Positions 1,610 through 50,585 of a stretch of 64,000 bases of DNA are shown piece after piece. Position 1 is the stretch's first letter. Every line of letters begins with the position of its first letter. This DNA comes from Eledone cirrhosa (lineage: Eukaryota): positions 16,678,001 to 16,742,000 of the forward strand of contig OZ024758.1 in the NCBI GenBank assembly GCA_964016885.1, read 5' to 3'. A program made the translations under genes and the position numbers. The notes beneath the pieces were generated by a model. It was given only the letters and a program-made list of their open reading frames with translations. It did no database searches and was not told where the DNA came from.

Positions 1610-3419
1610 TAGGTTGGGCTAAGGAAGAGAGCAACATAGGTTTGGCTAAGGAAGGGAGCAACATAGGTTTGGCTAAGGAAGGGAGCGACATAGGTTTGGC
1701 TAAGGAAGGGAGCAACATAGGTTTGGCTAAGGAAGAGAGCAACATAGGTTTGGCTAAGGAAGAGAGCAACATAGGTTTGGCTAAGGAAGAGAGCAACATA
1801 GGTTTGGCTAAGGAAGAGAGCAACATAGGTTTGGCTAAGGAAGAGGGCAACATAGGTTTGGCTAAGGAAGGGAGCAACATAGGTTTGGCTAAGGAAGGGA
1901 GCAACATAGGTTTGGCTAAGGAAGGGAGCAACATAGGTTTGGCTAAGGAAGGGAGCAACATAGGTTTGGCTAAGGAAGGGAGCAACATAGGTTTGGCTAA
2001 GGAAGGGAGCAACATAGGTTTGGCTAAGGAAGGGAGCAACATAGGTTTGGCTAAGGAAGAGAGCAACATAGGTTTGGCTAAGGAAGAGAGCAACATAGGT
2101 TTGGCTAAGGAAGGGAGAAACACAGGTTTGGCTAAGGAAGGGAACAACATAGGTTTGGCTAAGGAAGGGAGCAACATAGGTTTGGCTAAGGAAGAGAGCA
2201 ACATAGGTTTGGCTAAGGAAGAGAGCAACATAGGTTTGGCTAAGGAAGAGAGCAACATAGGTTTGGCTAAGGAAGAGAACAACATAGGTTTGGCTAAGGA
2301 AGAGAGCAACATAGGTTTGGCTAAGGAAGGGAGCAACATAGGTTTGGCTAAGGAAGGGAGCAACATAGGTTTGGCTAAGGAAGGAAGCAACATAGGTTTG
2401 GCTAAGGAAGGGAGCAACATAGGTTTGGCTAAGGAAGAGAGCAACATAGGTTTGGCTAAGGAAGAGAGCAACATAGGTTTGGCTAAGGAAGAGAGCAACA
2501 TAGGTTTGGCTAAGGAAGAGAGCAACATAGGTTTGGCTAAGGAAGAGGGCAACATAGGTTTGGCTAAGGAAGGGAGCAACATAGGTTTGGCTAAGGAAGG
2601 GAGCAACATAGGTTTGGCTAAGGAAGGGAGCAACATAGGTTTGGCTAAGGAAGGGAGCAACATAGGTTTGGCTAAGGAAGGGAGCAACATAGGTTTGGCT
2701 AAGGAAGAGAGCAACATAGGTTTGGCTAAGGAAGAGAGCAACATAGGTTTGGCTAAGGAAGGGAGCAACACAGGTTTGGCTAAGGAAGGGAACAACATAG
2801 GTTTGGCTAAGGAAGGGAGCAACATAGGTTTGGCTAAGGAAGAGAGCAACATAGGTTTGGCTAAGGAAGAGAGCAACATAGGTTTGGCTAAGGAAGAGAG
2901 CAACATAGGTTTGGCTAAGGAAGAGAACAACATAGGTTTGGCTAAGGAAGAGAGCAACATAGGTTTGGCTAAGGAAGGGAGCAACATAGGTTTGGCTAAG
3001 GAAGGGAGCAACATAGGTTTGGCTAAGGAAGGAAGCAACATAGGTTTGGCTAAGGAAGGGAGCAACATAGGTTTGGCTAAGGAAGAGAGCAACATAGGTT
3101 TGGCTAAGGAAGGGAGCAACATAGGTTTGGCTAAGGAAGGGAGCAACATAGGTTTGGCTAAGGAAGAGAGCAACATAGGTTTGGCTAAGGAAGAGAGCAA
3201 CATAGGATTGGCTAAGGAAGGGAGCAACATAGGTTTGGCTAAGGAAGGGAGCAACATAGGTTTGGCTAAGGAAGAGAGCAACATAGGTTTGGCTAAGGAA
3301 GAGAGCAACATAGGTTTGGCTAAGGAAGAGAGCAACATAGGTTTGGCTAAGGAAGAGAGCAACATAGGTTTGGATAAGGAAGAGAGCAACATAGGTTTGG
3401 CTAAGGAAGAGAACAACAT
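1610..3419. repeat. 27-bp minisatellite, ~67 copies (aggtttggctaaggaagRgagcaacat), with a 648-bp higher-order duplication
   Basis: Exact 27-nt period. Rare variants recur 648 nt apart (cacagg at 2121/2769, ggaagagaac at 2271/2919). Confidence 0.95.
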
Positions 3420-3829
3420 TGTACCGTTTCGGGCAGAGCCCCTTTCGATATAGAGTCCAGGGTAAAAGGTCAGAATTTTCCTCTCCCTGTCGGCAAACTA
3501 ATTTGTTCTACTCTTGAACTGTTTATTATCACTAATTCCCGACACAGACCAGCATTAGTTTGCTCGGATCTTACTGTTTACTTTACTTAATTAACCTTAG
3601 GGTCACTAAATAATTAAATAAATATTCTGAATTGTGTCTAATTTCAGATCTATTAATCTTCGTCTCACATCTACTTAATTAACAACAGTGTTGCTGCTTG
3701 ATACTGATAACCATAATCATCATCATCATCGTCATCATCATCTTAAGGTATATACGTACATATGTGTATTTCTTTATTCTTTCACCAGAAACGTTGTGGC
3801 AACATATAGTCTTTATAAAGGATATCAGA

Positions 3830-3840
3830 TAGACACATAC

Positions 3841-3931
<91 letters not shown>

Positions 3932-3995
3932 TATACACACATTTTATATATATACATACACACGTACATACATATATACACACACATATATATAC

Positions 3996-4028
<33 letters not shown>

Positions 4029-4034
4029 TTTATA

Positions 4035-4080
<46 letters not shown>

Positions 4081-5581
4081 GAGAAATTAATGCAAGCAAG
4101 AAGCCAACAGTAATTCATAATATATAAGTGACTATAACGTCAATATATATATATATAGTCATAAACACATTTTAAATATATATATATATATATATAAATA
4201 TATATATATACATATACATATATATATATACATATATACATATACATATACACATACATATATACATATACATATACACATACATATATACATATAAATA
4301 TATATATACATACATATAAATATATACATAAAAATATATATATACATATACATATAAATATATATATAAATATATATATACACATATACATATAAATATA
4401 TATATAAATATATATATACACATATACATATAAATATATATATAAATATATATATACACATATATAAATATACATATATATATATATATACACATATATA
4501 AATATACATATATATATATAAATATATATATACATATAAATATATATACATATATAAATATATATATACATATAAATACATATATATATATACAAATATG
4601 CATATATATACATATAATATATATACATATATAAATATATATATACATATAAATACATATATATATATACAAATATGCATATATATACATATAAATATAT
4701 ATACATATATAAATATATATATACATATACATATATATATATACAAATATGCATATATATACATATATATACATATAAACATATATAAATATACATATAT
4801 GCATATATAACATATATATACATATATATATATACAATATGCATATATATACATATATATACATATAAATACATATATATATAATATATGCATATAAATA
4901 CATATATATATATACATATATGCATATATATACATATATATACATATAATACATATATATACATATATATACATATAAATACATATATATATATACATAT
5001 ATGCATATATATACATATACATATATATACATATATATACATATATACATATATGCATATATATACATTACATATATACATATATATACATAATACACAT
5101 ATATGCATATATATACATATATACACATATATGCATATATATACATATACATATATACACATATATACATATATACACATATATGCATATATATACATAT
5201 ATACACATATATGCATATATATACATATATATACATATATATACATATATACACATATATGCATATATATACATATATATACATATATATACATATATAC
5301 ACATATATATGCATATATACACATATATATACATATATACACATATATATGCATATATACACATATATATGCATATATACACATATATATACATATATAC
5401 ACATATATATGCATATATACACATATATATGCATATATATACATATACATATATATACATATATATACATATATATACACATATATATAGATATACATAT
5501 ATATATATATACATATATATATTACATATATATATATAACATATACATATATATATATATATACATATATATAATATATAC

Positions 5582-5811: not shown

Positions 5812-5890
<79 letters not shown>

Positions 5891-5962
5891 CATATATATA
5901 CATATATAATATATATAATATATATACAATATATACATATATATATATATACATATATATAC

Positions 5963-5995
<33 letters not shown>

Positions 5996-6006
5996 CATAT
6001 ATATAC

Positions 6007-6039
<33 letters not shown>

Positions 6040-6100
6040 CATATATATATATACATATATATATATATACATATATATATATACATATATATATATATAC

Positions 6101-6185
<85 letters not shown>

Positions 6186-6197
6186 CATATATATATT

Positions 6198-6247
<50 letters not shown>

Positions 6248-6285
6248 CATATATATATTTATATATATATATACATATATATATT

Positions 6286-6335
<50 letters not shown>

Positions 6336-6535
6336 TGCATATATATACATATATATATATATATATACATATATGCAAATATATACATATATATATATAT
6401 ATATACATATATATAATATACATATACATACACATATATACATACACATATTTATATATACATATGCATATATACACACATATATATATATACATATATA
6501 CATATACATATATACATATACATATCTATGTATAC

Positions 6536-6571
<36 letters not shown>

Positions 6572-7338
6572 ATATACATACATATATACATATACATATA
6601 TATATATATATATATACACAATATATACATACATATATACATACATATATACATATATATACATATATACATATATATACATATATACATACATATATAC
6701 ATATACATATATATACACATATACATATACACATATACATTATATATATACTCATATACATATACACATATACATATATATATACACATATACATATACA
6801 TATATATATACATATATATATACATATACATATATATATATATAATCATATACATATATATACATATACATATATATACATATATATATATACACACATA
6901 TACATATATACACACATATACATATATATACATATACACAACATATACATATATACACACATACATATATATATACACATATACATATATACATATATAT
7001 ATATACACATATATATATATACATATATATATATACACATATATATATATACATATATATATATATACACATATATATATATACACATATATATATATAC
7101 ACACATATATATACACATATATATATACACATATATATATACATATATACATATATACATATATACACATATATGTATACATATATACATATATACACAT
7201 ATAGATACATATATATACACATATAGATACATATATACATAATACACATATAGATACATATATATATACACATATAGATACATATATATATATACACATA
7301 TATACATATATACATATACCACATATACACATATATAC

Positions 7339-8610: not shown

Positions 8611-9249
8611 TTTACGCACATACTCATACGTACATGAAAAATGGCTGTTAGCTATTCCCAATGAAAGTGACTAACATACAGATTACAAATACATCGTGTA
8701 AGATGATCAATACAATTATGCAAGTCGTTTAAAGTCCATGATGTATCAGGTCCCCGTTGTTTCATAAATTACAACAATATTACTTTATTGTCTTCTTCGA
8801 AACTAACCCATCCTTCATATGTAGAGGTCAAATAATTGAAAAATGTTTCACAATACATGAATACACGCTTACATACATGCTTATATGTAACTCTTCTGCC
8901 TTATTTGTTTAGTAAATATAAGATTCAAATGAATGTTCTTATCTAATATTTGAAGTTGATAGGCGACGAAGATAACATAGCACAAGTGGCACATTACTAG
9001 TAATTGACAAAGAATTAGCTTATATTAAATGCAAGCATAGTCAAGTATAAGCAAATACAGAGTATAGATTCTTTAGACACTAATATGAAAACTCTGTGCT
9101 TTTGGAGAGACAGTAATATGTTTACAGGTGAAGGATGCTGTTCGGTCTATTTAGCTTGAAACGCAGACATGGTTGGTCTGTGATAGGTGGCTGCGTGTCG
9201 CGATAAATGTGAACTAATGTAGTATTTGTGTTCTTTCAAATACAAACCA

Positions 9250-10910
9250 TATTTGTGCAACGTACTGACACAAAAAATATATTTGTGGAAGGTACTGACA
9301 CAAAAAATATATTTGTGGAAGGTACTGACACAAAAAATATATTTGTGAAAGGTACTGACACAAAAAATATATTTGTGTGAAAGGTATAGACGCAAAAATA
9401 TATATTTGTGAAAGGTACTGATACAAAAAATATATTTGTGTGAAAGGTGCTAACACAAAAATATATATTTGTGAAAGGTAGAGGCGCAAAAATATATATT
9501 TGTGAAAGGTACTGACACAAAAATATATATTTGTGAAAGGTACAGACGCAAAAATATATATTTGTGAAAGGTACAGACGCAAAAATATATATTTGTGAAA
9601 GGTACAGACGCAAAAATATATATTTGTGAAAGGTATTGATACAAAAATATATTTGTGAAAGGTACTGACACAAAAATATATTTGTGAAAGGTACTGACAC
9701 AAAAATATATTTGTGAAAGGTACTGACACAAAAATATATTTGTGAAAGGTACTGACACAAAAAATATATTTGTGTGAAAGGTACTGACACAAAAATATAT
9801 ATTTGTGAAAGGTCCTGACACAAAAAATATATTTGTGTGAAAGGTACCGACACAAAAATATATATTTGTGAAAGGTATAGACGCAAAAATATATATTTGT
9901 GAAAGGTATAGACGCAAAAATATATATTTGTGAAAGGTATAGACGCAAAAATATATTTGTGAAAGGTACTGACACAAAAATATATATTTGTGAAAGGTAC
10001 TGACACAAAAATATATATTTGTGAAAGGTATAGACGCAAAAATATATATTTGTGAAAGGTATAGACGCAAAAATATATTTGTGAAAGGTACTGACACAAA
10101 AATATATATTTGTGAAAGGTATTGATACAAAAATATATTTGTGAAAGGTACTGACACAAAAAATATATTTGTCTGAAAGGTCCTGACACAAAAAATATAT
10201 TTGTGTGAAAGGTGCTAACACAAAAATATATATTTGTGAAAGGTAGAGACGCAAAAATATATATTTGTGAAAGGTACTGACACAAAAATATATTTGTGGA
10301 AAGTACTGCCATAAAATATATATCTGTGAAAGGTACTGACACAAAAATATATTTGTGAAAGGTACTGACACAAAAAATATATTTGTGTGAAAGGTACTGA
10401 CACAAAAAATATATTTGTGTGAAAGGTGCTAACACAAAAATATATATTTGTGAAAGGTATAGACGCAAAAATATATATTTATGAAAGGTAGAGACGCAAA
10501 AATATATATTTGTGAAGGGTACTGACACAAAAATATATATTTGTGAAAGGTACTGACACAAAAACATATTTGTGGAAAGTACTGCCATAAAATATATATC
10601 TGTGAAAGGTACTGACATAACAAATATATTTGTGAAAGGTACTGGCACAAAAATATATATTTGTGGAAGGTACTGGCGCAAAAATATATATTTGTAAAAG
10701 GTACAGACCCAAAATATATATTTGTGAAAGATACAGACGCAAAAATATATATTTGTGAAAGGTACTGACATAAAAAATATATGTGTAAAAGGTACTGACA
10801 TAAAAAATATATGTGTAAAAGGTACTGACACACTGACACAAACATATATTTGTGAAAGGTACTGACACAAAAAATTATATTCGTGGAAGGTACTGACACA
10901 AACTTGTGAA
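9250..10910. repeat. ~30-33-bp minisatellite (atttgtgaaaggtactgacacaaaaatat)
   Basis: Roughly 50 tandem units with length variation in the A and TA runs. Confidence 0.95.
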
Positions 10911-20895: not shown

Positions 20896-21439
20896 GATAA
20901 ATCTACCAAAAGTTTACGGTAGTGTCCAATCCGTATGAAGAACTCAATGTAATCCGGATATCATGGAAAGAAGAGATGCATTCAAAAATCACTTTCGGTG
21001 AAAGATAAACGGAATACAGAGTCAAGATAAAATGTTAAAAAAATAATGAATAAAACAATGAAACAGTTCCTTATATTAAACAAAATAGTTCATTATTTAA
21101 CGATCGTTTCTAGGACATATATGTGTTAGAATTGGCATGCATATTCAACAGATCTATGTACAAAATTATACAAACTATCAAATATAATATACATACCAAC
21201 ACATACATATGCCGTCTTCAGAAATAATCTTTTCTAATTATTTCTGAAGACGGCATATGTATGTGTTGGTATGTATATTATATTTGATAGTTTGTATAAT
21301 TTTGTACATAGATCTGTTGAATATGCATGCCAATTCTAACACATATATGTCCTAGAAACGATCGTTAAATAATGAACTTTTTTTGTTTAATATAAGGAAC
21401 TGTTTCATTGTTTTATTCATTATTTTTTTAACATTTTAT
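20893..21439. mobile_element. Fold-back mini-element inserted in (TA)n: ~200-bp arms (21027-21228 / 21237-21439) plus a one-sided extension (20893-21026)
   Basis: Near-perfect palindrome. A copy of the empty site lies at 21511-21630. Confidence 0.9.
21237..21373 (+). ncRNA. Type I hammerhead with ~100-nt expanded stem II (mirror copy 21092-21228, minus)
   Basis: attattt CTGAAGA c ggcatatgt-atgtgttgg ... ctaacacat-atatgtc cta GAAAC gatc GTT aaataat: 7-bp stem I, palindromic stem III. Confidence 0.8.
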
Positions 21440-23275: not shown

Positions 23276-23307
<32 letters not shown>

Positions 23308-23341
23308 GATATATATATAGATATATATATATATATATATA

Positions 23342-23399
23342 TAAATGTAAGTATGTATGTATACGTACATACATATATGTATACAGACGTACAGTAGCA

Positions 23400-23451
<52 letters not shown>

Positions 23452-24184
23452 CAGGTACACATACATATATGCACGCATCAGTTTAGCGGACGCTTATTAT
23501 AACGCCGCTTTGTTCGTTTGTCAACAAACTGAACAGCCTGAATTTATGCCATACGGTGTTAAGGCAACCACGTCACCTTTTTGTTCAACACTGACACAGG
23601 AACGATGTACTAGTTTCAAGCTTGTTAGCTATCATCAGCACCGTTTACCCATCTGCCAGATAGTTGAACGTTCGAAAGTATATACTTTCCGTATGAAAAT
23701 TAACGGCTGAGCAGCCTAATTTGCATATTGAGTGAGTTAAATCGGTCAGGCATACCGAAAACGATAAGTTGAAAAAATGAAAACGAAATTTCATTTCTCA
23801 CTCTTAGTATGGCACTTACTTAAATGTAAGTATGTATGTATACGTACATACATATATGTATACAAACGTACAGTAGCATGCATATATATATATATATATA
23901 TACATACAGGTACACATACATATATGCACGCCTTAACACCGTATGGCATAAATTCAGGCTGTTCAGTTTGTTGACAAACGAACAAAGCGGCGTTATAATA
24001 AGCGTCCGCTAAACTGATGCGTGCATATATGTATGTGTACCTGTATGTATATATATATATATATATGCATGCTACTGTACGTCTGTATACATATATGTAT
24101 GTACGTATACATACATACTTACATTTAAGTAAGTGCCATACTAAGAGTGAGAAATGAAATTTCGTTTTCATTTTTTCAACTTAT
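23342..24184. mobile_element. Retrozyme-like element: ~480-nt unit plus a partial tandem repeat, followed by an inverted arm
   Basis: 23342-23477 is repeated at 23821-23931. 23930-24184 is the reverse complement of the unit segment ending at ~23564. Hammerhead on the minus strand. Confidence 0.8.
23603..23643 (-). ncRNA. Minimal type I hammerhead ribozyme
   Basis: cggtg CTGATGA t agct aaca agct t GAAAC ta GTA catcg; palindromic stem III ACTAGT. Confidence 0.85.
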
Positions 24185-24531
24185 ATATATATATATATAT
24201 ATATAAATGAAAATAGCGAAATTAATGTGAGCAAGAAGCCAACAGTATTTCATCATATATAAGTGACTATAACGTCAAGATGGAAAATATTTAACGTAAG
24301 ATATGGGAAAATAATTCAAACTCAATTAAAAAAAGAAGTTAAAAAAAAGTCATTTTATCCACAGATTTTGTGAAATCCAGGGAAAAAACCGATAGAGTCT
24401 TAACTCATATATATATATTTAACCTTAATTTTATTCTATGTATATATATGTATATATATTAATAAGGGTTGATGGACCCAGCATATTTATCAATGCCAGT
24501 ACCGGTTGTATCTCAGATATATATATATATA

Positions 24532-25085
24532 GTTATGCTTTGGGAGGGTCATGTTGCCAATAAGAAACACACGCACCAGTTGCTTTCACTCCAATTTATT
24601 ATAAATTAAATTTATAAATTTAAGAATTTATAAATTTCCGGTTGGTTGGTTGGTTCCACAACCGGGCTGTTGTTCATATATTGTCAAAGTTCTTTCGTCA
24701 CGCATTCTGTGACCTCTTCAGTGACTGGGGATTCTTTTCTTTGTTTTTGTGCATCTCCTTTGTTCTGTCCTACGCCATCTTGAAAAACAAGATGGCGTAG
24801 GACAGAACAAAGGAGAGGCACAAAAACAGAAAAACTGAAGAGGTCACAGAATGTGTGACGAAAGAACTTTGACAATATATGAACAACCGTCCGGTTGTGG
24901 AACCAATCAACCAACCAGAAATTTATAAATTCTTAAATTTATAAATTTAATTTATAATAAATTGGAGTGAAAGCGACTGGTGCGTGTGTTTCTTATTGGC
25001 AACATGACCCTCCCAAAGCATAACAATATCGGTTTCAACACACGTTTTCAGATAAAGAATCTTGCTAAACAAATTCAGAAACGAA

Positions 25086-35030: not shown

Positions 35031-36352
35031 TTCAGTCTACAATAATTGTTTCTACTTTTGGCACAAGGCCAGCAATTATCTCAGTGCATTACTGGTACTT
35101 TCATTTATCGACCCCGTAAGGATGAAAGGCAAAGTTAACCTCGGCGGGATTTGAACTCAGATTATAAAGGGCCGTAACTCTATGCTACAAAGCATGGTGT
35201 CCGACTCTCTGCCAATACTGCCAATTCACCGTCTTCGGTCTACAATAATTGTTTCTACTTTAGGGACAAGGCCAGCAATTACCCAGTTCATTACTGGTAC
35301 TTTATTTTATCGACCCCGTAAGGATGAAAGGCAAAGTTAACCTCGGCGGGATTTGAACTCAGATCATAAAGGGCCGTAACTCTATGCTACAAAGCATGGT
35401 GTCCGACTCTCTGCCAATACTGCCAATTCACCGTCTTCAGTCTACAATAATTGTTTCTACTTTAGGCACAAGGCCAGCAATTAACCAGTTCATTACTGGT
35501 ACTTTATTTTATCGACCCCGTAAGGATGAAAAGCAAAGTTAACCTCGGCGGGATTTGAATCCAGATCATAAAGGGCCGTAACTCTATGCTACAAACATGG
35601 TGTCCGAACCTCTACCGATACTGCCAATTCACCGCCCTTGAATGATAGAAATAATTGTTTCTACTTTAGGCACAAGGCCAGCAAATACCCAGTTCATTAC
35701 TGGTACTTTATTTTATCGACCCCGTAAGGATGAAAGGCAAAGTTAACCTCGGCGGGATTTGAACTCAGATCGTAAAGGGACGTAACTATGCAGGAAAGCC
35801 TTTCATCCCTACGGGGTCGATAAAATAAAGTACCAGTAATACACTGGGTTAATTGCTGGCCTTGTGCCAAAAGTAGAAACAATTATATTTAGTAGGATTG
35901 GCAGTATTGGTAGAGGGTCGGACGCCATGCTTTGACGCATAGAGTTACGGCCCTTGCCATTCTGAGTTCAAATCCCGCCGAGGTTAACTTTGCCTTTCAT
36001 CCTTACGGGGTCGATAAAATAAAGTACCAGTAATGTACTGGGTAATTGCTGGCCTTGTGCCAAAAGTAGAAACAATTGTATTTAGTATCCTTATCCATGA
36101 TACAAGTTTTTTAAAGATCTTTCCCGAAAGAATTAACTGATTACCTAATACCAAAGAAAAGATGAATACCTTATTTACCAATAATAATTGTTTCTACTTT
36201 TGGCACAAGGCCAGCAATTATCCCAGTGCATGACTGGTACTTTATTTTATCGACCCAAGAAAGATGAAAGTCAAAGCTAACGTCGCCGGGATTTGAACTC
36301 AGAACGTAAAGCATGGTGTCAGACCCTCTACCGATGCTGCCAATCCATCGCT
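35031..36352. mobile_element. Cluster of seven SINE family A copies: four head-to-tail minus copies (~203-bp period), two plus copies, one minus copy
   Basis: The spacer ttcrgtctacaataattg is repeated with the unit at 35031, 35235 and 35436. Confidence 0.9.
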
Positions 36353-46020: not shown

Positions 46021-46540
46021 TATTGTTATATTTGGGGAGGGTCATATTTGCGTAATATTGCCAGAATTAATAACAGAACACACTCACTGTTTGGTTGGTT
46101 TTCGCTTCTCGCTGTCTTTTATATATATATATCTGCGATCTAACTTACTCGGTCCTCAATGTTGCCATTGACTGACCGGCGGTCAAAAATAATACAGATA
46201 CAATATAGACAAACACATATATATATAGTTTACATAAATCTTTCGTTGCACATCTGCAACATCGTCAGTGGTGTTATATTCATTGTTCCTCCTGTTGTGT
46301 TGTATGTCTACGCCATTTTTTTTGTTCAGTCTGTCTATATATTTATTTATTTATTTGCTTGTTTGTTTATCTTATTTTATTTTGTCTTCTTTGCGCATGC
46401 GTTTGCGTGTGTGTATAGTGTTATGTGTGATGTGTGACTAGTGTGTATAGTGTTGTGTCTGCTGGGTGACTAGTGTGTGTTTATGTGCTTGTGTATGTAT
46501 TTATTTATCTTATTTTATTTAATTTAATTTACTTATTTAT

Positions 46541-47298
46541 TTATACTTCTCTTAGGTCAGTGTTGTTTGTTTGGGTGTTGTTGTTGTTCCACTCATTCTT
46601 TCTGTTTAGCTTTGGTCTTCTAATTTCTATTTCACTGGCCTCTCTGATTTGCCTATCTGCTGGGTCATTCCTATGTTTAGATATTATTCTAATTTCTATG
46701 TTGTCTATGTTACCGTCATGATGTTGTCTAGCATGTTCGTATAGTACTGACCCGTTTTTTCGTCCTTTTAGTTCCCCCCAGTGTTGGTCTATCCTTTCAC
46801 CTATGCTACGAGCTGTCTCACCTATGTATGTTGTTGTCGTGTTTCTGCAAGTACCCTCTGTACATCTTATGCTATAGACTACGTTTCTAGTTTTACAGTT
46901 TATCCGGGGGTTCACCTTACATATGATACATTTCCTATTGGTACAGTGGGTTTTCTTAAAAGGGTAGGTTTTGCTGATCAGGGATTTTATGGTGGTTCCT
47001 GGCTTTTCTACCACCTTTATTTTTAAGTGGGTCTTTCTCAGGGCCTTTCTACACTGGTTAGCTAATTTCCCTCCAGGGGTGGCGTCCACAAACATGACAC
47101 TCTGATATCTCTGGTTGTCGTACCATGATGTGGCCTTCCCTATCTTATGTCTAGCCCTATCTAAGCTATTCCATGATTTGCTCCTGTATAGTGGGCAAAT
47201 TCCTTTCATGTCCAGTTCTATGAGGGTCTTATACTTTTCCATGGCTCCTTCGTATACTCTGACTCTGTCTCTTTGGTTGTAGCCAGAGAACTGCATGC
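46541..47298 (-). pseudogene. Inverted duplicate of the PLE C-terminal region (thumb end + GIY-YIG)
   Basis: MQFSGYNQRD...TDLREV is identical to the C-terminus of the plus-strand ORF. The N-terminal MYYFHYY.. is antisense read-through. Confidence 0.9.
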
Positions 47299-47637
47299 AG
47301 TGACCACAGTAGTAATAACGGTAACAATACGAACAACAACAACAACAATAACCACAGTGGTAATAATGGAAATAGTACATGTAGCAACATCAACAAAAAC
47401 AAGAAACATAATAATAGTAACAACCACAATGGTAGAAATAGCAGTAACAACAACAATAACGGTGAAGTAAACAACAATACATCTAGCAATCATAACAATA
47501 ATAATATTAATGCTAAGGATAGAAACAACAACAACCACCATGATAACAATAATAGCAACACACACAACTATGACGATAGAAATAACGACAACCCCTTAGA
47601 GAAACTATTTTTCAACCCAGCTGACAAAACATATAAG

Positions 47638-49998
47638 ATGGGTAATATCTATCCTACGAGGTTACCCTTTAATAAAAGAGTTTGCATACCACAACAAATA
47701 GATGACGAGACGGAGGCACAGTTCACCATAGCTAGAAATAAGATTAGACAAGTAGTAGACAGGTACACTATGAGACAGAGCAGACCAGAGGCCCAACAAC
47801 TTGGGATAAAACCTGTAGAAGGCTTGGTTAGCCTCAAGCAGCGCACAAGGGATGGTGAGGTAGTGTGTCTACCCACAGATAAGTCTGGTAGGATGTCAAT
47901 AGATAGCATGCCGAACTACATCGAGGCAATGCAACCCCACATCACCAACACGAGCGAAGTTGCACAACTAACACACGATGGGAGAGAAAAAATCCTCAAC
48001 GCTCACATGATGATGTGGACTGACATCCTAAAGCCAAGCAGACGCACTGCCAACAACTTCCAGGCGTCTAACAATGGCATACCACCCTTGTATGGGCTCC
48101 GCAAAGACCACAAGACAGTCGACGACCCGACAATAGGACCACCAACAAGACCTGTATGCGGAGCTAATATAGCTAGCAACTACAGGATCTCCTACTTCCT
48201 CTCAATGGTTATACGCCCCATAATCAAGATGTCCCCAGATGTATGTGAAAGTACAGAGGACCTCCTCAGCAGAATCAGTGAGTGCAACAAAAACAGGAGC
48301 CTATCCAACTGCATAATAGGCAGCATGGATGTGGTGTCACTGTACCCATCCATTAACATTGATTTTGCTGTGAAAAGATGTGTGGAGATGATCATTGAGA
48401 GTGAGGTGGAGTTCTGCGACGTCGACACAGACGAACTGGGCCTCCTACTTAGACTTACCTACGACACTGACTACCTAGACAGCCATGACCTTAGATGTTT
48501 CTGCCCTAGTAGACCTATAAGAGGTAGACCCCCCACCATAACCTCAATGGCTAAAAAGACTCCCATAGGAAGGTGGATTGGGTGGACCAAAGCTATACGG
48601 ACCCCCCAAAACACTGATCAGGTAAGAAAAATGGTCGCACATGCAATAGGGGCTAGTATCAAAACTACCCTAAAGGGCCACATATTTAAGTTCAATGAGA
48701 AAATCTACACTCAAAATGAGGGAGCAGCCATCGGCGTCAGCATAGCTGGCGATGTTGCCAACCTTTTCATGGTATGGTGGGAAAGGAGACTTAAAGATCT
48801 CCTTAATGAAAGCTCCATAGACCTCATCATGTACTCTCGTTATGTAGACGATATCAATATAGTTATAAGAACACCCCCACTAGAGAGCACTAACAAGTTT
48901 GATTTAGAACGTAGCACGATGGAAAGCATCCAGCAGATAGCTAATTCCATACACCAGAGTATAACTGTAACTATAGACTTCCCTTCCAAACACCCTAACA
49001 ATAGACTATCTGTATTAGACACAGAACTCTGGATTAACACTATAGACGAGAGAGCCCAAATTCTCCACTCACACTATGCTAAACCCATGGCCTCCAAATA
49101 CCTGATACTCAAAAACTCAGCAATGTCCAGTAGTGCTAAGTTTAATATTCTGATCGCAGATTTGGTACGAGTGATGAAGAATGTGTCCAGCATGTGCGAC
49201 CCAACAGAAATGGAAGGACACATCCAACACTTCATCAACCGCATGCAGTTCTCTGGCTACAACCAAAGAGACAGAGTCAGAGTATACGAAGGAGCCATGG
49301 AAAAGTATAAGACCCTCATAGAACTGGACATGAAAGGAATTTGCCCACTATACAGGAGCAAATCATGGAATAGCTTAGATAGGGCTAGACATAAGATAGG
49401 GAAGGCCACATCATGGTACGACAACCAGAGATATCAGAGTGTCATGTTTGTGGACGCCACCCCTGGAGGGAAATTAGCTAACCAGTGTAGAAAGGCCCTG
49501 AGAAAGACCCACTTAAAAATAAAGGTGGTAGAAAAGCCAGGAACCACCATAAAATCCCTGATCAGCAAAACCTACCCTTTTAAGAAAACCCACTGTACCA
49601 ATAGGAAATGTATCATATGTAAGGTGAACCCCCGGATAAACTGTAAAACTAGAAACGTAGTCTATAGCATAAGATGTACAGAGGGTACTTGCAGAAACAC
49701 GACAACAACATACATAGGTGAGACAGCTCGTAGCATAGGTGAAAGGATAGACCAACACTGGGGGGAACTAAAAGGACGAAAAAACGGGTCAGTACTATAC
49801 GAACATGCTAGACAACATCATGACGGTAACATAGACAACATAGAAATTAGAATAATATCTAAACATAGGAATGACCCAGCAGATAGGCAAATCAGAGAGG
49901 CCAGTGAAATAGAAATTAGAAGACCAAAGCTAAACAGAAAGAATGAGTGGAACAACAACAACACCCAAACAAACAACACTGACCTAAGAGAAGTATAA
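47638..49998 (+). CDS. Penelope-like reverse transcriptase + Cys-rich linker + GIY-YIG endonuclease (786 aa from first Met; frame open from ~47299)
   Basis: TDKSG, LYGLRKDHK, TRPV, SMDVVSLYPSI, QNEGAAIG, YSRYVDD, VLDTEL, HYAKP; linker CTNRKCIIC..C; NVVYSIRC...YIGETARSIGERIDQH...EH...RQIREASEI...LN. Confidence 0.95.
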   Translation: MGNIYPTRLPFNKRVCIPQQIDDETEAQFTIARNKIRQVVDRYTMRQSRPEAQQLGIKPVEGLVSLKQRTRDGEVVCLPTDKSGRMSIDSMPNYIEAMQPHITNTSEVAQLTHDGREKILNAHMMMWTDILKPSRRTANNFQASNNGIPPLYGLRKDHKTVDDPTIGPPTRPVCGANIASNYRISYFLSMVIRPIIKMSPDVCESTEDLLSRISECNKNRSLSNCIIGSMDVVSLYPSINIDFAVKRCVEMIIESEVEFCDVDTDELGLLLRLTYDTDYLDSHDLRCFCPSRPIRGRPPTITSMAKKTPIGRWIGWTKAIRTPQNTDQVRKMVAHAIGASIKTTLKGHIFKFNEKIYTQNEGAAIGVSIAGDVANLFMVWWERRLKDLLNESSIDLIMYSRYVDDINIVIRTPPLESTNKFDLERSTMESIQQIANSIHQSITVTIDFPSKHPNNRLSVLDTELWINTIDERAQILHSHYAKPMASKYLILKNSAMSSSAKFNILIADLVRVMKNVSSMCDPTEMEGHIQHFINRMQFSGYNQRDRVRVYEGAMEKYKTLIELDMKGICPLYRSKSWNSLDRARHKIGKATSWYDNQRYQSVMFVDATPGGKLANQCRKALRKTHLKIKVVEKPGTTIKSLISKTYPFKKTHCTNRKCIICKVNPRINCKTRNVVYSIRCTEGTCRNTTTTYIGETARSIGERIDQHWGELKGRKNGSVLYEHARQHHDGNIDNIEIRIISKHRNDPADRQIREASEIEIRRPKLNRKNEWNNNNTQTNNTDLREV

Positions 49999-50268
49999 AT
50001 AAATAAGTAAATTAAATTAAATAAAATAAGATAAATAAATACATACACAAGCACATAAACACACACTAGTCACCCAGCAGACACAACACTATACACACTA
50101 GTCACACATCACACATAACACTATACACACACGCAAACGCATGCGCAAAGAAGACAAAATAAAATAAGATAAACAAACAAGCAAATAAATAAATAAATAT
50201 ATAGACAGACTGAACAAAAAAAATGGCGTAGACATACAACACAACAGGAGGAACAATGAATATAACAC

Positions 50269-50306
50269 CACTGACGATGTTGCAGATGTGCAACGAAAGA
50301 TTTATG
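50269..50306 (+). ncRNA. Minimal hammerhead in the PLE 3' repeat (mirror copy 46233-46270, minus)
   Basis: ca CTGACGA t gttgca gatg tgcaac GAAAG at TTA tg: strong stem II, G-U pair in stem III, very short stem I. Confidence 0.75.
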
Positions 50307-50585
50307 TAAACTATATATATATGTGTTTGTCTATATTGTATCTGTATTATTTTTGACCGCCGGTCAGTCAATGGCAACATTGAGGACCGAGTAAGTTAGA
50401 TCGCAGATATATATATATAAAAGACAGCGAGAAGCGAAAACCAACCAAACAGTGAGTGTGTTCTGTTATTAATTCTGGCAATATTACGCAAATATGACCC
50501 TCCCCAAATATAACAATATCTGTTTCGACACACGATTTCATATAAAAAACCTCGCAAAACTATATATATATATATATATATATAA

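Follow-up and report, generated by a model that had tools for sequence, protein, structure and literature searches.

PLE insertions have a recognisable form, in that they consist of partial tandems accompanied by an inverted, 5'-truncated copy, carry a tail of 30-40 bp at one end and occupy microsatellite targets (accessible parts of PMC8557442 and PMC3846280). Animal non-LTR retrozymes have already been proposed to be non-autonomous PLE derivatives, with their mobilisation left open in the accessible text (preprint 10.64898/2026.07.22.740005; Li, Clavereau and Pollet 2026). Similarly, the accessible part of PMC4209133 proposes circular templates for copies longer than one unit, so the combined idea of a PLE derivative copied from a circle is already in print. 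The same source describes short palindromic helices III as typical of metazoan type I hammerhead motifs acting as dimers, and related PLE and axolotl motifs are reported to cleave poorly as monomers (available sections of PMC4209133 and PMC7229834). The mechanism of tandem and inverted PLE insertion, and the use of retrozyme circles as templates for integration, are treated as open questions in what is accessible of PMC8557442, PMC4209133, PMC7229834 and the 2026 preprint. A literature search found no paper on the family described here, nor any retrozyme reported to have paired fixed ends and a tail on one side; the family may be listed in supplements or repeat libraries. A giant squid paper gives only a count of 235 hammerhead hits.

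Here, the window is a 64,000-nt stretch of the Eledone cirrhosa genome (contig OZ024758.1, positions 16,678,001 to 16,742,000), a microsatellite-rich genome of 3.0 Gb. Unit positions (U) are window positions minus 23341, with U defined on the unit at 23342-23820. The locus is one insertion of a young, non-coding family with units of about 470 nt (Table 1). Pairwise alignment resolves it into a 590-nt left arm (1.24 units, 23342-23931) and a 255-nt inverted arm (23930-24184), the latter consisting of U423-479 joined to U1-224. This confirms the original prediction of a ~480-nt unit that restarts at 23821, runs for ~110 nt (111 by alignment) and then switches strand. The predicted minus-strand hammerhead is likewise intact in its CUGAUGA and GAAA cores and its GUA triplet, and one ribozyme is present in the copy. 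The (AT)n tract aside, the three copies in the window differ at a single base: tacaaacg is found in copy 2 only, and alignment agrees with the prediction that the inverted arm shares tacagacg with copy 1. Both outer ends of the insertion are family-wide fixed ends within (TA)n.

Table 1. Features of the insertion and its flanks, in window coordinates.
Feature	Position	Strand	Basis
Left (TA)n target microsatellite	23280..23341	.	
Full unit, 479 nt here (about 465-480 elsewhere); RNA-sense 3' end at 23342 is the fixed no-tail end	23342..23820	-	alignment
Internal (AT)n tract of the unit; length-variable; frequent junction site and third 3'-end site	23402..23447	.	
Type I hammerhead	23598..23649	-	Rfam, alignment of relatives; PMC4209133 (accessible part)
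Second unit, incomplete (111 nt); carries a private G>A at 23865; forms the 5'-truncated end of the left arm	23821..23931	-	
Head-to-head junction, 2-nt GC overlap	23930..23931	.	
Inverted arm, U224 to U1; ends 42 nt before the cut site	23930..24127	+	
57-nt 'tail' (U479 to U423); single end of the insertion only	24128..24184	+	
Right (TA)n target microsatellite; target-site duplication unreadable	24185..24204	.	

The family extends well beyond the window. A word covering U29-59 has 15,254 exact genomic matches (reversed control 0), and a 39-nt word from the ribozyme has 10,198 exact copies, many at unit spacing, against 0 in its reversed control, which shows that the motif is not due to chance. 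Such exact-word counts are lower bounds on family size. Variant ribozyme alleles at window 23605 and 23624 are common in the DNA-like run X1, so the family is probably larger than counted, through older subfamilies that exact words would miss. Among the genomic copies listed, the best are 98-99% identical and many subfamilies lie side by side. The frames found within units are all of low complexity and reach about 160 aa at most; the GC content is 0.35 and the unit is strongly self-paired (z -8.8).

Two samples from chromosome C1, both skewed to younger subfamilies, were used to describe the ends of the family. The first, word-anchored, comprises 53 clusters from 46 loci among the first 100 places of U29-59 word matches; the second comprises 60 tail-anchored insertions from the first 100 places of tail-end matches. 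In a few cases, clusters belong together as fragments of a single insertion. Two arms are present in 69 of the 113 insertions mapped. In the word-anchored set, all 31 two-arm insertions are head-to-head with RNA-sense 3' ends outward; in 25 of them one arm ends with the tail (U423-435) and the other without it (U1-20), and double tails are absent. The 38 second arms of the tail-anchored set end in the no-tail form (27), at the internal TA (8) or elsewhere (3), and never in a tail, so that double tails number 0 among the 69 two-arm insertions. Genome-wide, tail and no-tail ends directly beside TA runs are found at about 1:1 (2,486 and 2,350, respectively). Junction overlaps of at least 1 nt occur in 27 of 45 junctions measured outside the AT tract.

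These ends bear on how the insertion should be read. The 3' ends are fixed at U1 or U423, 57 nt apart, with some at the internal TA tract, and the 5' ends are scattered; copies are therefore not randomly permuted, and the circular permutation anticipated in the original prediction does not hold in that form. Nor does the inversion, taken there as part of a circle signature, act as one by itself, because it is the ordinary head-to-head PLE layout with a one-sided tail (PMC8557442 and PMC3846280, as far as accessible). What is borne out is a retrozyme-like, ORF-less hammerhead tandem with copies longer than one unit, whose arms read through the cut site. The family is very probably an animal non-LTR retrozyme, and as such a non-autonomous PLE derivative.

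The hammerhead has a stem I of 7 bp with a 2-bp extension, a stem II of 4 bp above a U-U mismatch, and a stem III of 2 bp with a palindromic 2-nt loop of the dimer type. Cleavage is predicted after GUA, between 23608 and 23607 (U266/267). The Rfam match is weak (HH9, 18.5 bits vs a gathering score of 52, E 0.05) and surfaced only in a narrow search; across the whole window, the 150 of 358 matches listed held only sub-threshold microRNA matches on repeats. The isolated fold is not unusual either (z -1.4). When seven related ribozymes are aligned, 6 of the 16 pairs show compensatory changes and pairing is kept in 91% of cells; this covariation count is not a probability, as the motifs were hand-picked from a motif scan and are related in sequence. 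The palindrome has a computed 6-bp intermolecular duplex of -6.8 kcal/mol.

Recurrent variants are fewer in the ribozyme than elsewhere in the unit (3 of 46 vs 61 of 318 positions, p 0.02), in a test that counts related subfamilies as independent and a sample that leans to young subfamilies of one chromosome. The three that do occur sit at the stem I edge, at the variable core position and in loop II. This depletion, together with the covariation, indicates that the ribozyme is apparently under selection, and it probably matters to the spread of the family. Predicted cleavage may be weak, given the U-U mismatch at the base of stem II and a stem III that requires a dimer.

Transcription was considered through sequencing runs, none of them on record as RNA. 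Run X4 is RNA-like, with three GT..AG joints on EF1-alpha, and run X1 passes through introns like DNA. Contigs of X4 cover U129-472, which places the family in one RNA-like run; such contigs show neither strand, ends, level nor circularity, and read-through of intronic copies is possible. One loop II allele is dominant in X4, judged by contig depth only. A contig of X4 stops at 23607, next to the predicted cut, but was set aside because contigs do not show RNA ends; among the pieces listed, no X4 piece spans the cut by 31 letters on each side. Run X5 has no contig on the unit or on EF1-alpha; run X6 has two on the unit and none on EF1-alpha.

For the insertion as a whole, the explanation that we find on balance probable is PLE-driven twin priming in (TA)n, for which the most likely template is a monomer that was cleaved and then resealed into a circle. 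Tandem transcripts would self-cleave via the dimeric hammerhead, and the monomers would be ligated to circles of ~470 nt. A PLE reverse transcriptase/endonuclease acting in trans would then cut (TA)n and prime the two cDNAs at different sites, U1 and U423. Each cDNA would travel round the template for a variable length, and the two cDNA ends would be joined by microhomology. Taken alone, the circular template is slightly, and indirectly, favoured by the comparisons set out below. A stricter form is proposed tentatively, in which one resealed circle of ~470 nt would be the template for priming from the two ends of a cut TA target, at two fixed sites 57 nt apart, with a Penelope-type enzyme rolling round it in both cDNAs.

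Evidence on the template comes from 180 arms, a set that leaves out two edge-cut arms. These cross the predicted cut site 213 times, with at least one crossing in 108 arms and a maximum of 15 in one arm. Two or more ribozymes are crossed by 43 of the 180; the family thus has at least two consecutive complete ribozymes in these arms, the feature by which the accessible text of the 2026 preprint recognises active copies. The 5' ends do not pile up at the cut (3 vs 3.25 expected at U262-270, and 8 vs 9.1 expected at U246-270), against a baseline that excludes ends falling within the AT tract or on the border of the segment, U479. Indel scars are similarly lacking there, with one rare indel in U250-269 at about 226-fold coverage. 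Reverse transcription, we infer, seldom ran into an open cut end. Separately, a cluster of arm ends at U241-256, seen in the 30 best-scoring loci, was rejected since it vanished in the larger sample.

Haplotypes provide a second line of evidence. Between the two arms of one insertion the distance is 1.7%, compared with 5.2% across insertions (37 pairs), and an arm's own partner is nearest or tied in 22 of the 37. In each of two long arrays, every segment of the two arms has the same haplotype (16 of 16 in one, 20 of 20 in the other). In 4 of 31 arrays, a variant is present in all covering units and absent from the other sampled insertions, and one of these variants spans both arms. As for mosaic templates drawn from several subfamilies, they are unsupported: minor alleles are not enriched for those of other subfamilies (23 vs 17.7 expected, p 0.10).

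These data can also be read without a circle. PLE twin priming could act on linear, uncleaved multimeric transcripts of genomic arrays, with later unequal exchange or conversion lengthening and homogenising the arrays, a reading that we regard as unlikely while granting that it accounts equally well for read-through with neither scars nor pile-up. Variants recur in scattered units of some long arrays (L108, and the sister family's 32-piece array and L251), which implies that arrays also expand or convert locally and that array length alone needs no rolling-circle synthesis; this local reshuffling suits linear multimers. So does a ribozyme of the dimer type with a U-U mismatch, which may be slow, and local amplification is favoured in the accessible discussion of the 2026 preprint (10.64898/2026.07.22.740005). 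However, linear multimers leave unexplained why the ribozyme is conserved when cut ends are missing from the cDNAs: a resealed circle would explain both, an uncleaved multimer only the missing ends. They also demand an extra homogenising step for rare alleles that fill both arms, and the multi-unit arms that flank one junction with one haplotype, in the two long arrays above, count against them. Against the circle, in turn, whole-array alleles are few and could stem from later homogenisation, and shared haplotypes could be due to a single active source locus and not to a single molecule.

The single-base difference within the window had been offered as a template clue, a role that it loses once the family is considered. 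The word tacaaacg (G45A) is rare, with 58 exact matches vs 15,254 for the majority word tacagacg. All 49 insertions that carry it were mapped, of which 11 are single-unit and 38 multi-unit. The allele is confined to one unit in 34 of the 38 multi-unit carriers, the window copy included, and is found in 2 of 4 units in one more. As a rare allele usually limited to one unit, it is uninformative on the template and was rejected as a marker; the window copy most likely acquired it by later mutation or through an error in copying. The remaining three multi-unit carriers have G45A in every unit (4 of 4 in one), on two haplotypes and in both arms in two of them. An allele that fills whole arrays across both arms was counted for a circular-monomer template, whereas three young arrays with G45A in one of several units (L264, L272, L276) could have copied a mixed source, as linear multimers would allow.

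R2-type reverse transcriptases perform end-to-end template jumping. Tandem cDNA could in this way be made from cleaved linear monomers by jumps at the cut site, which would fit the conservation of the ribozyme and, if a single source dominates, one haplotype per insertion; the reading is nevertheless highly improbable, as neither the excess of 5' ends at the cut (3 vs 3.25; 8 vs 9.1 at U246-270) nor the indel scars (absent at about 226-fold coverage) that speak to it were found. A product formed at the DNA level with no RNA step, be it arm fold-back, satellite slippage or an assembly artefact, is very unlikely, for all that palindromes and (AT)n abound in the unit, L114 and L118 are near-symmetric at a palindrome, and self-priming has been proposed for head-to-head PLEs (accessible part of PMC3846280): the right arm's join of U423-479 to U1-224 is not contiguous in the left arm, of which it is thus not a copy, base-precise and asymmetric ends are common to thousands of dispersed insertions, the same layout is seen in a sister family with a 69-nt tail, and the lengths of the arms show no clear correlation (rho 0.19, p 0.13, n=68).

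That sister retrozyme family (L025:1975-3356; L249-L257) has a 466-nt unit with a GUU triplet and the same palindromic stem III. It has 9,502 pattern matches and fixed ends 69 nt apart, and one of its arms runs to about 31 units, with variants recurring in scattered units. A third hammerhead tandem family, with 310-nt spacing, is found in both orientations (L099 about 3500-4300, L122 about 5850-6800). Other repeats in the window include a near-perfect hairpin at 21082-21383, whose 147-nt arms are separated by an 8-nt spacer and which is probably a further inverted insertion. There are also two minisatellites, one with 67 copies of 27 nt (1610-3419) and the other with 54 copies of 31 nt (9249-10902), as well as a tandem of 202 nt (35031-35787) that we take to resemble a SINE.

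Coding PLEs are found as well. One at window 46025-50560 contains a 911-aa stop-to-stop frame (47263-49998, +), in which RT and GIY-YIG-like motifs are present and the N-terminal part is rich in Asn. In Pfam, this ORF has a weak RVT_1 match, and two frames at L036 have none. The element has an inverted truncated copy on its left, a hammerhead-like motif in its 3' UTR and a tail of ~40 nt at its right end only, a layout that matches the retrozyme-like family and was counted in favour of PLE-type ends. Near-identical copies of it are found at L118 and L075. Another inverted repeat, at 24527-25085, has 196-nt arms and a one-sided tail at about 25030-25085. It matches the 3' UTR of a related family of coding PLEs (L064, L084, L008), a region that bears a hammerhead. 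Several PLE families are nested in the same TA tracts as the element (L036, L037, L062, L097, L166, L204, L206, L207); we take these to be Neptune-like from their Cys-rich linker.

As for the unit being the ordinary terminal repeat of a coding PLE, none of 44 single-arm insertions abuts a PLE ORF in that way, and the nearest same-sense ORFs end more than 600 nt off, behind their own UTRs. The search for a partner PLE with related ends combined a single query with a Neptune-like endonuclease, scanning of 3' flanks and blast of parts of the unit at low stringency; none was found among the PLE fragments in 213 loci plus the window (about 1 Mb). The endonuclease query gave 66,273 first-look candidates in the genome, of which 150 were scored, covering a small part of its PLEs.

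On its own, the single locus is ordinary repeat DNA, and its value lies in the large natural test set for mechanism to which it belongs. A PLE end signature with no ORF ties an animal retrozyme to the PLE machinery through the anatomy of its insertions, not through co-occurrence. In addition, for thousands of young insertions, circle and multimer models give different, countable predictions. If the stricter, single-circle form is true, these insertions would record rolling-circle twin priming, and one route would explain retrozyme arrays together with the one-sided tail and head-to-head inversion of PLEs. That route would then be shared by two or more sister families in the genome.

Among known systems, plant LTR retrozymes are similar in being non-autonomous hammerhead retroelements with a proposed circular intermediate (accessible parts of PMC4918200 and PMC7229834). 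However, they have type III ribozymes, LTRs, PBS/PPT and 4-bp TSDs in those descriptions, while the family described here has type I ribozymes in tandem and no readable TSD.

Animal non-LTR retrozymes are closer. As described in the accessible parts of PMC7229834 (Cervera and de la Pena 2020) and the preprint (10.64898/2026.07.22.740005), they share with the family a non-coding tandem of low GC with a type I hammerhead per unit, dimers to long multimers, strong self-pairing, co-occurrence with PLEs and the lack of an LTR. Axolotl HHR_Amex2 likewise has a U-U mismatch at its helix II base (same sources and extent). The unit of ~470 nt is slightly longer than the 170-400 nt RNAs and about 450-bp repeats reported there for animal retrozymes (criterion about 150-450 bp). 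Fixed paired ends, a one-sided tail, head-to-head arms and TA targeting do not appear in the accessible text of these descriptions. Circles have been demonstrated for animal retrozymes, according to the same accessible parts, whereas for the present family they are predicted.

Finally, EN+ PLEs (Penelope/Poseidon, Neptune, Naiad) and the non-autonomous MRC1 provide the other comparison (accessible parts of PMC8557442 and PMC3846280). The family differs from EN+ PLEs in having no ORF and a tail of 57 nt rather than the 30-40 given there, and its ends lack sequence similarity to those of the coding PLEs sampled here. With these elements it shares 5'-truncated tandems with a head-to-head inverted copy, a tail at one end, microsatellite targeting, microhomology at junctions and a hammerhead in the repeat.
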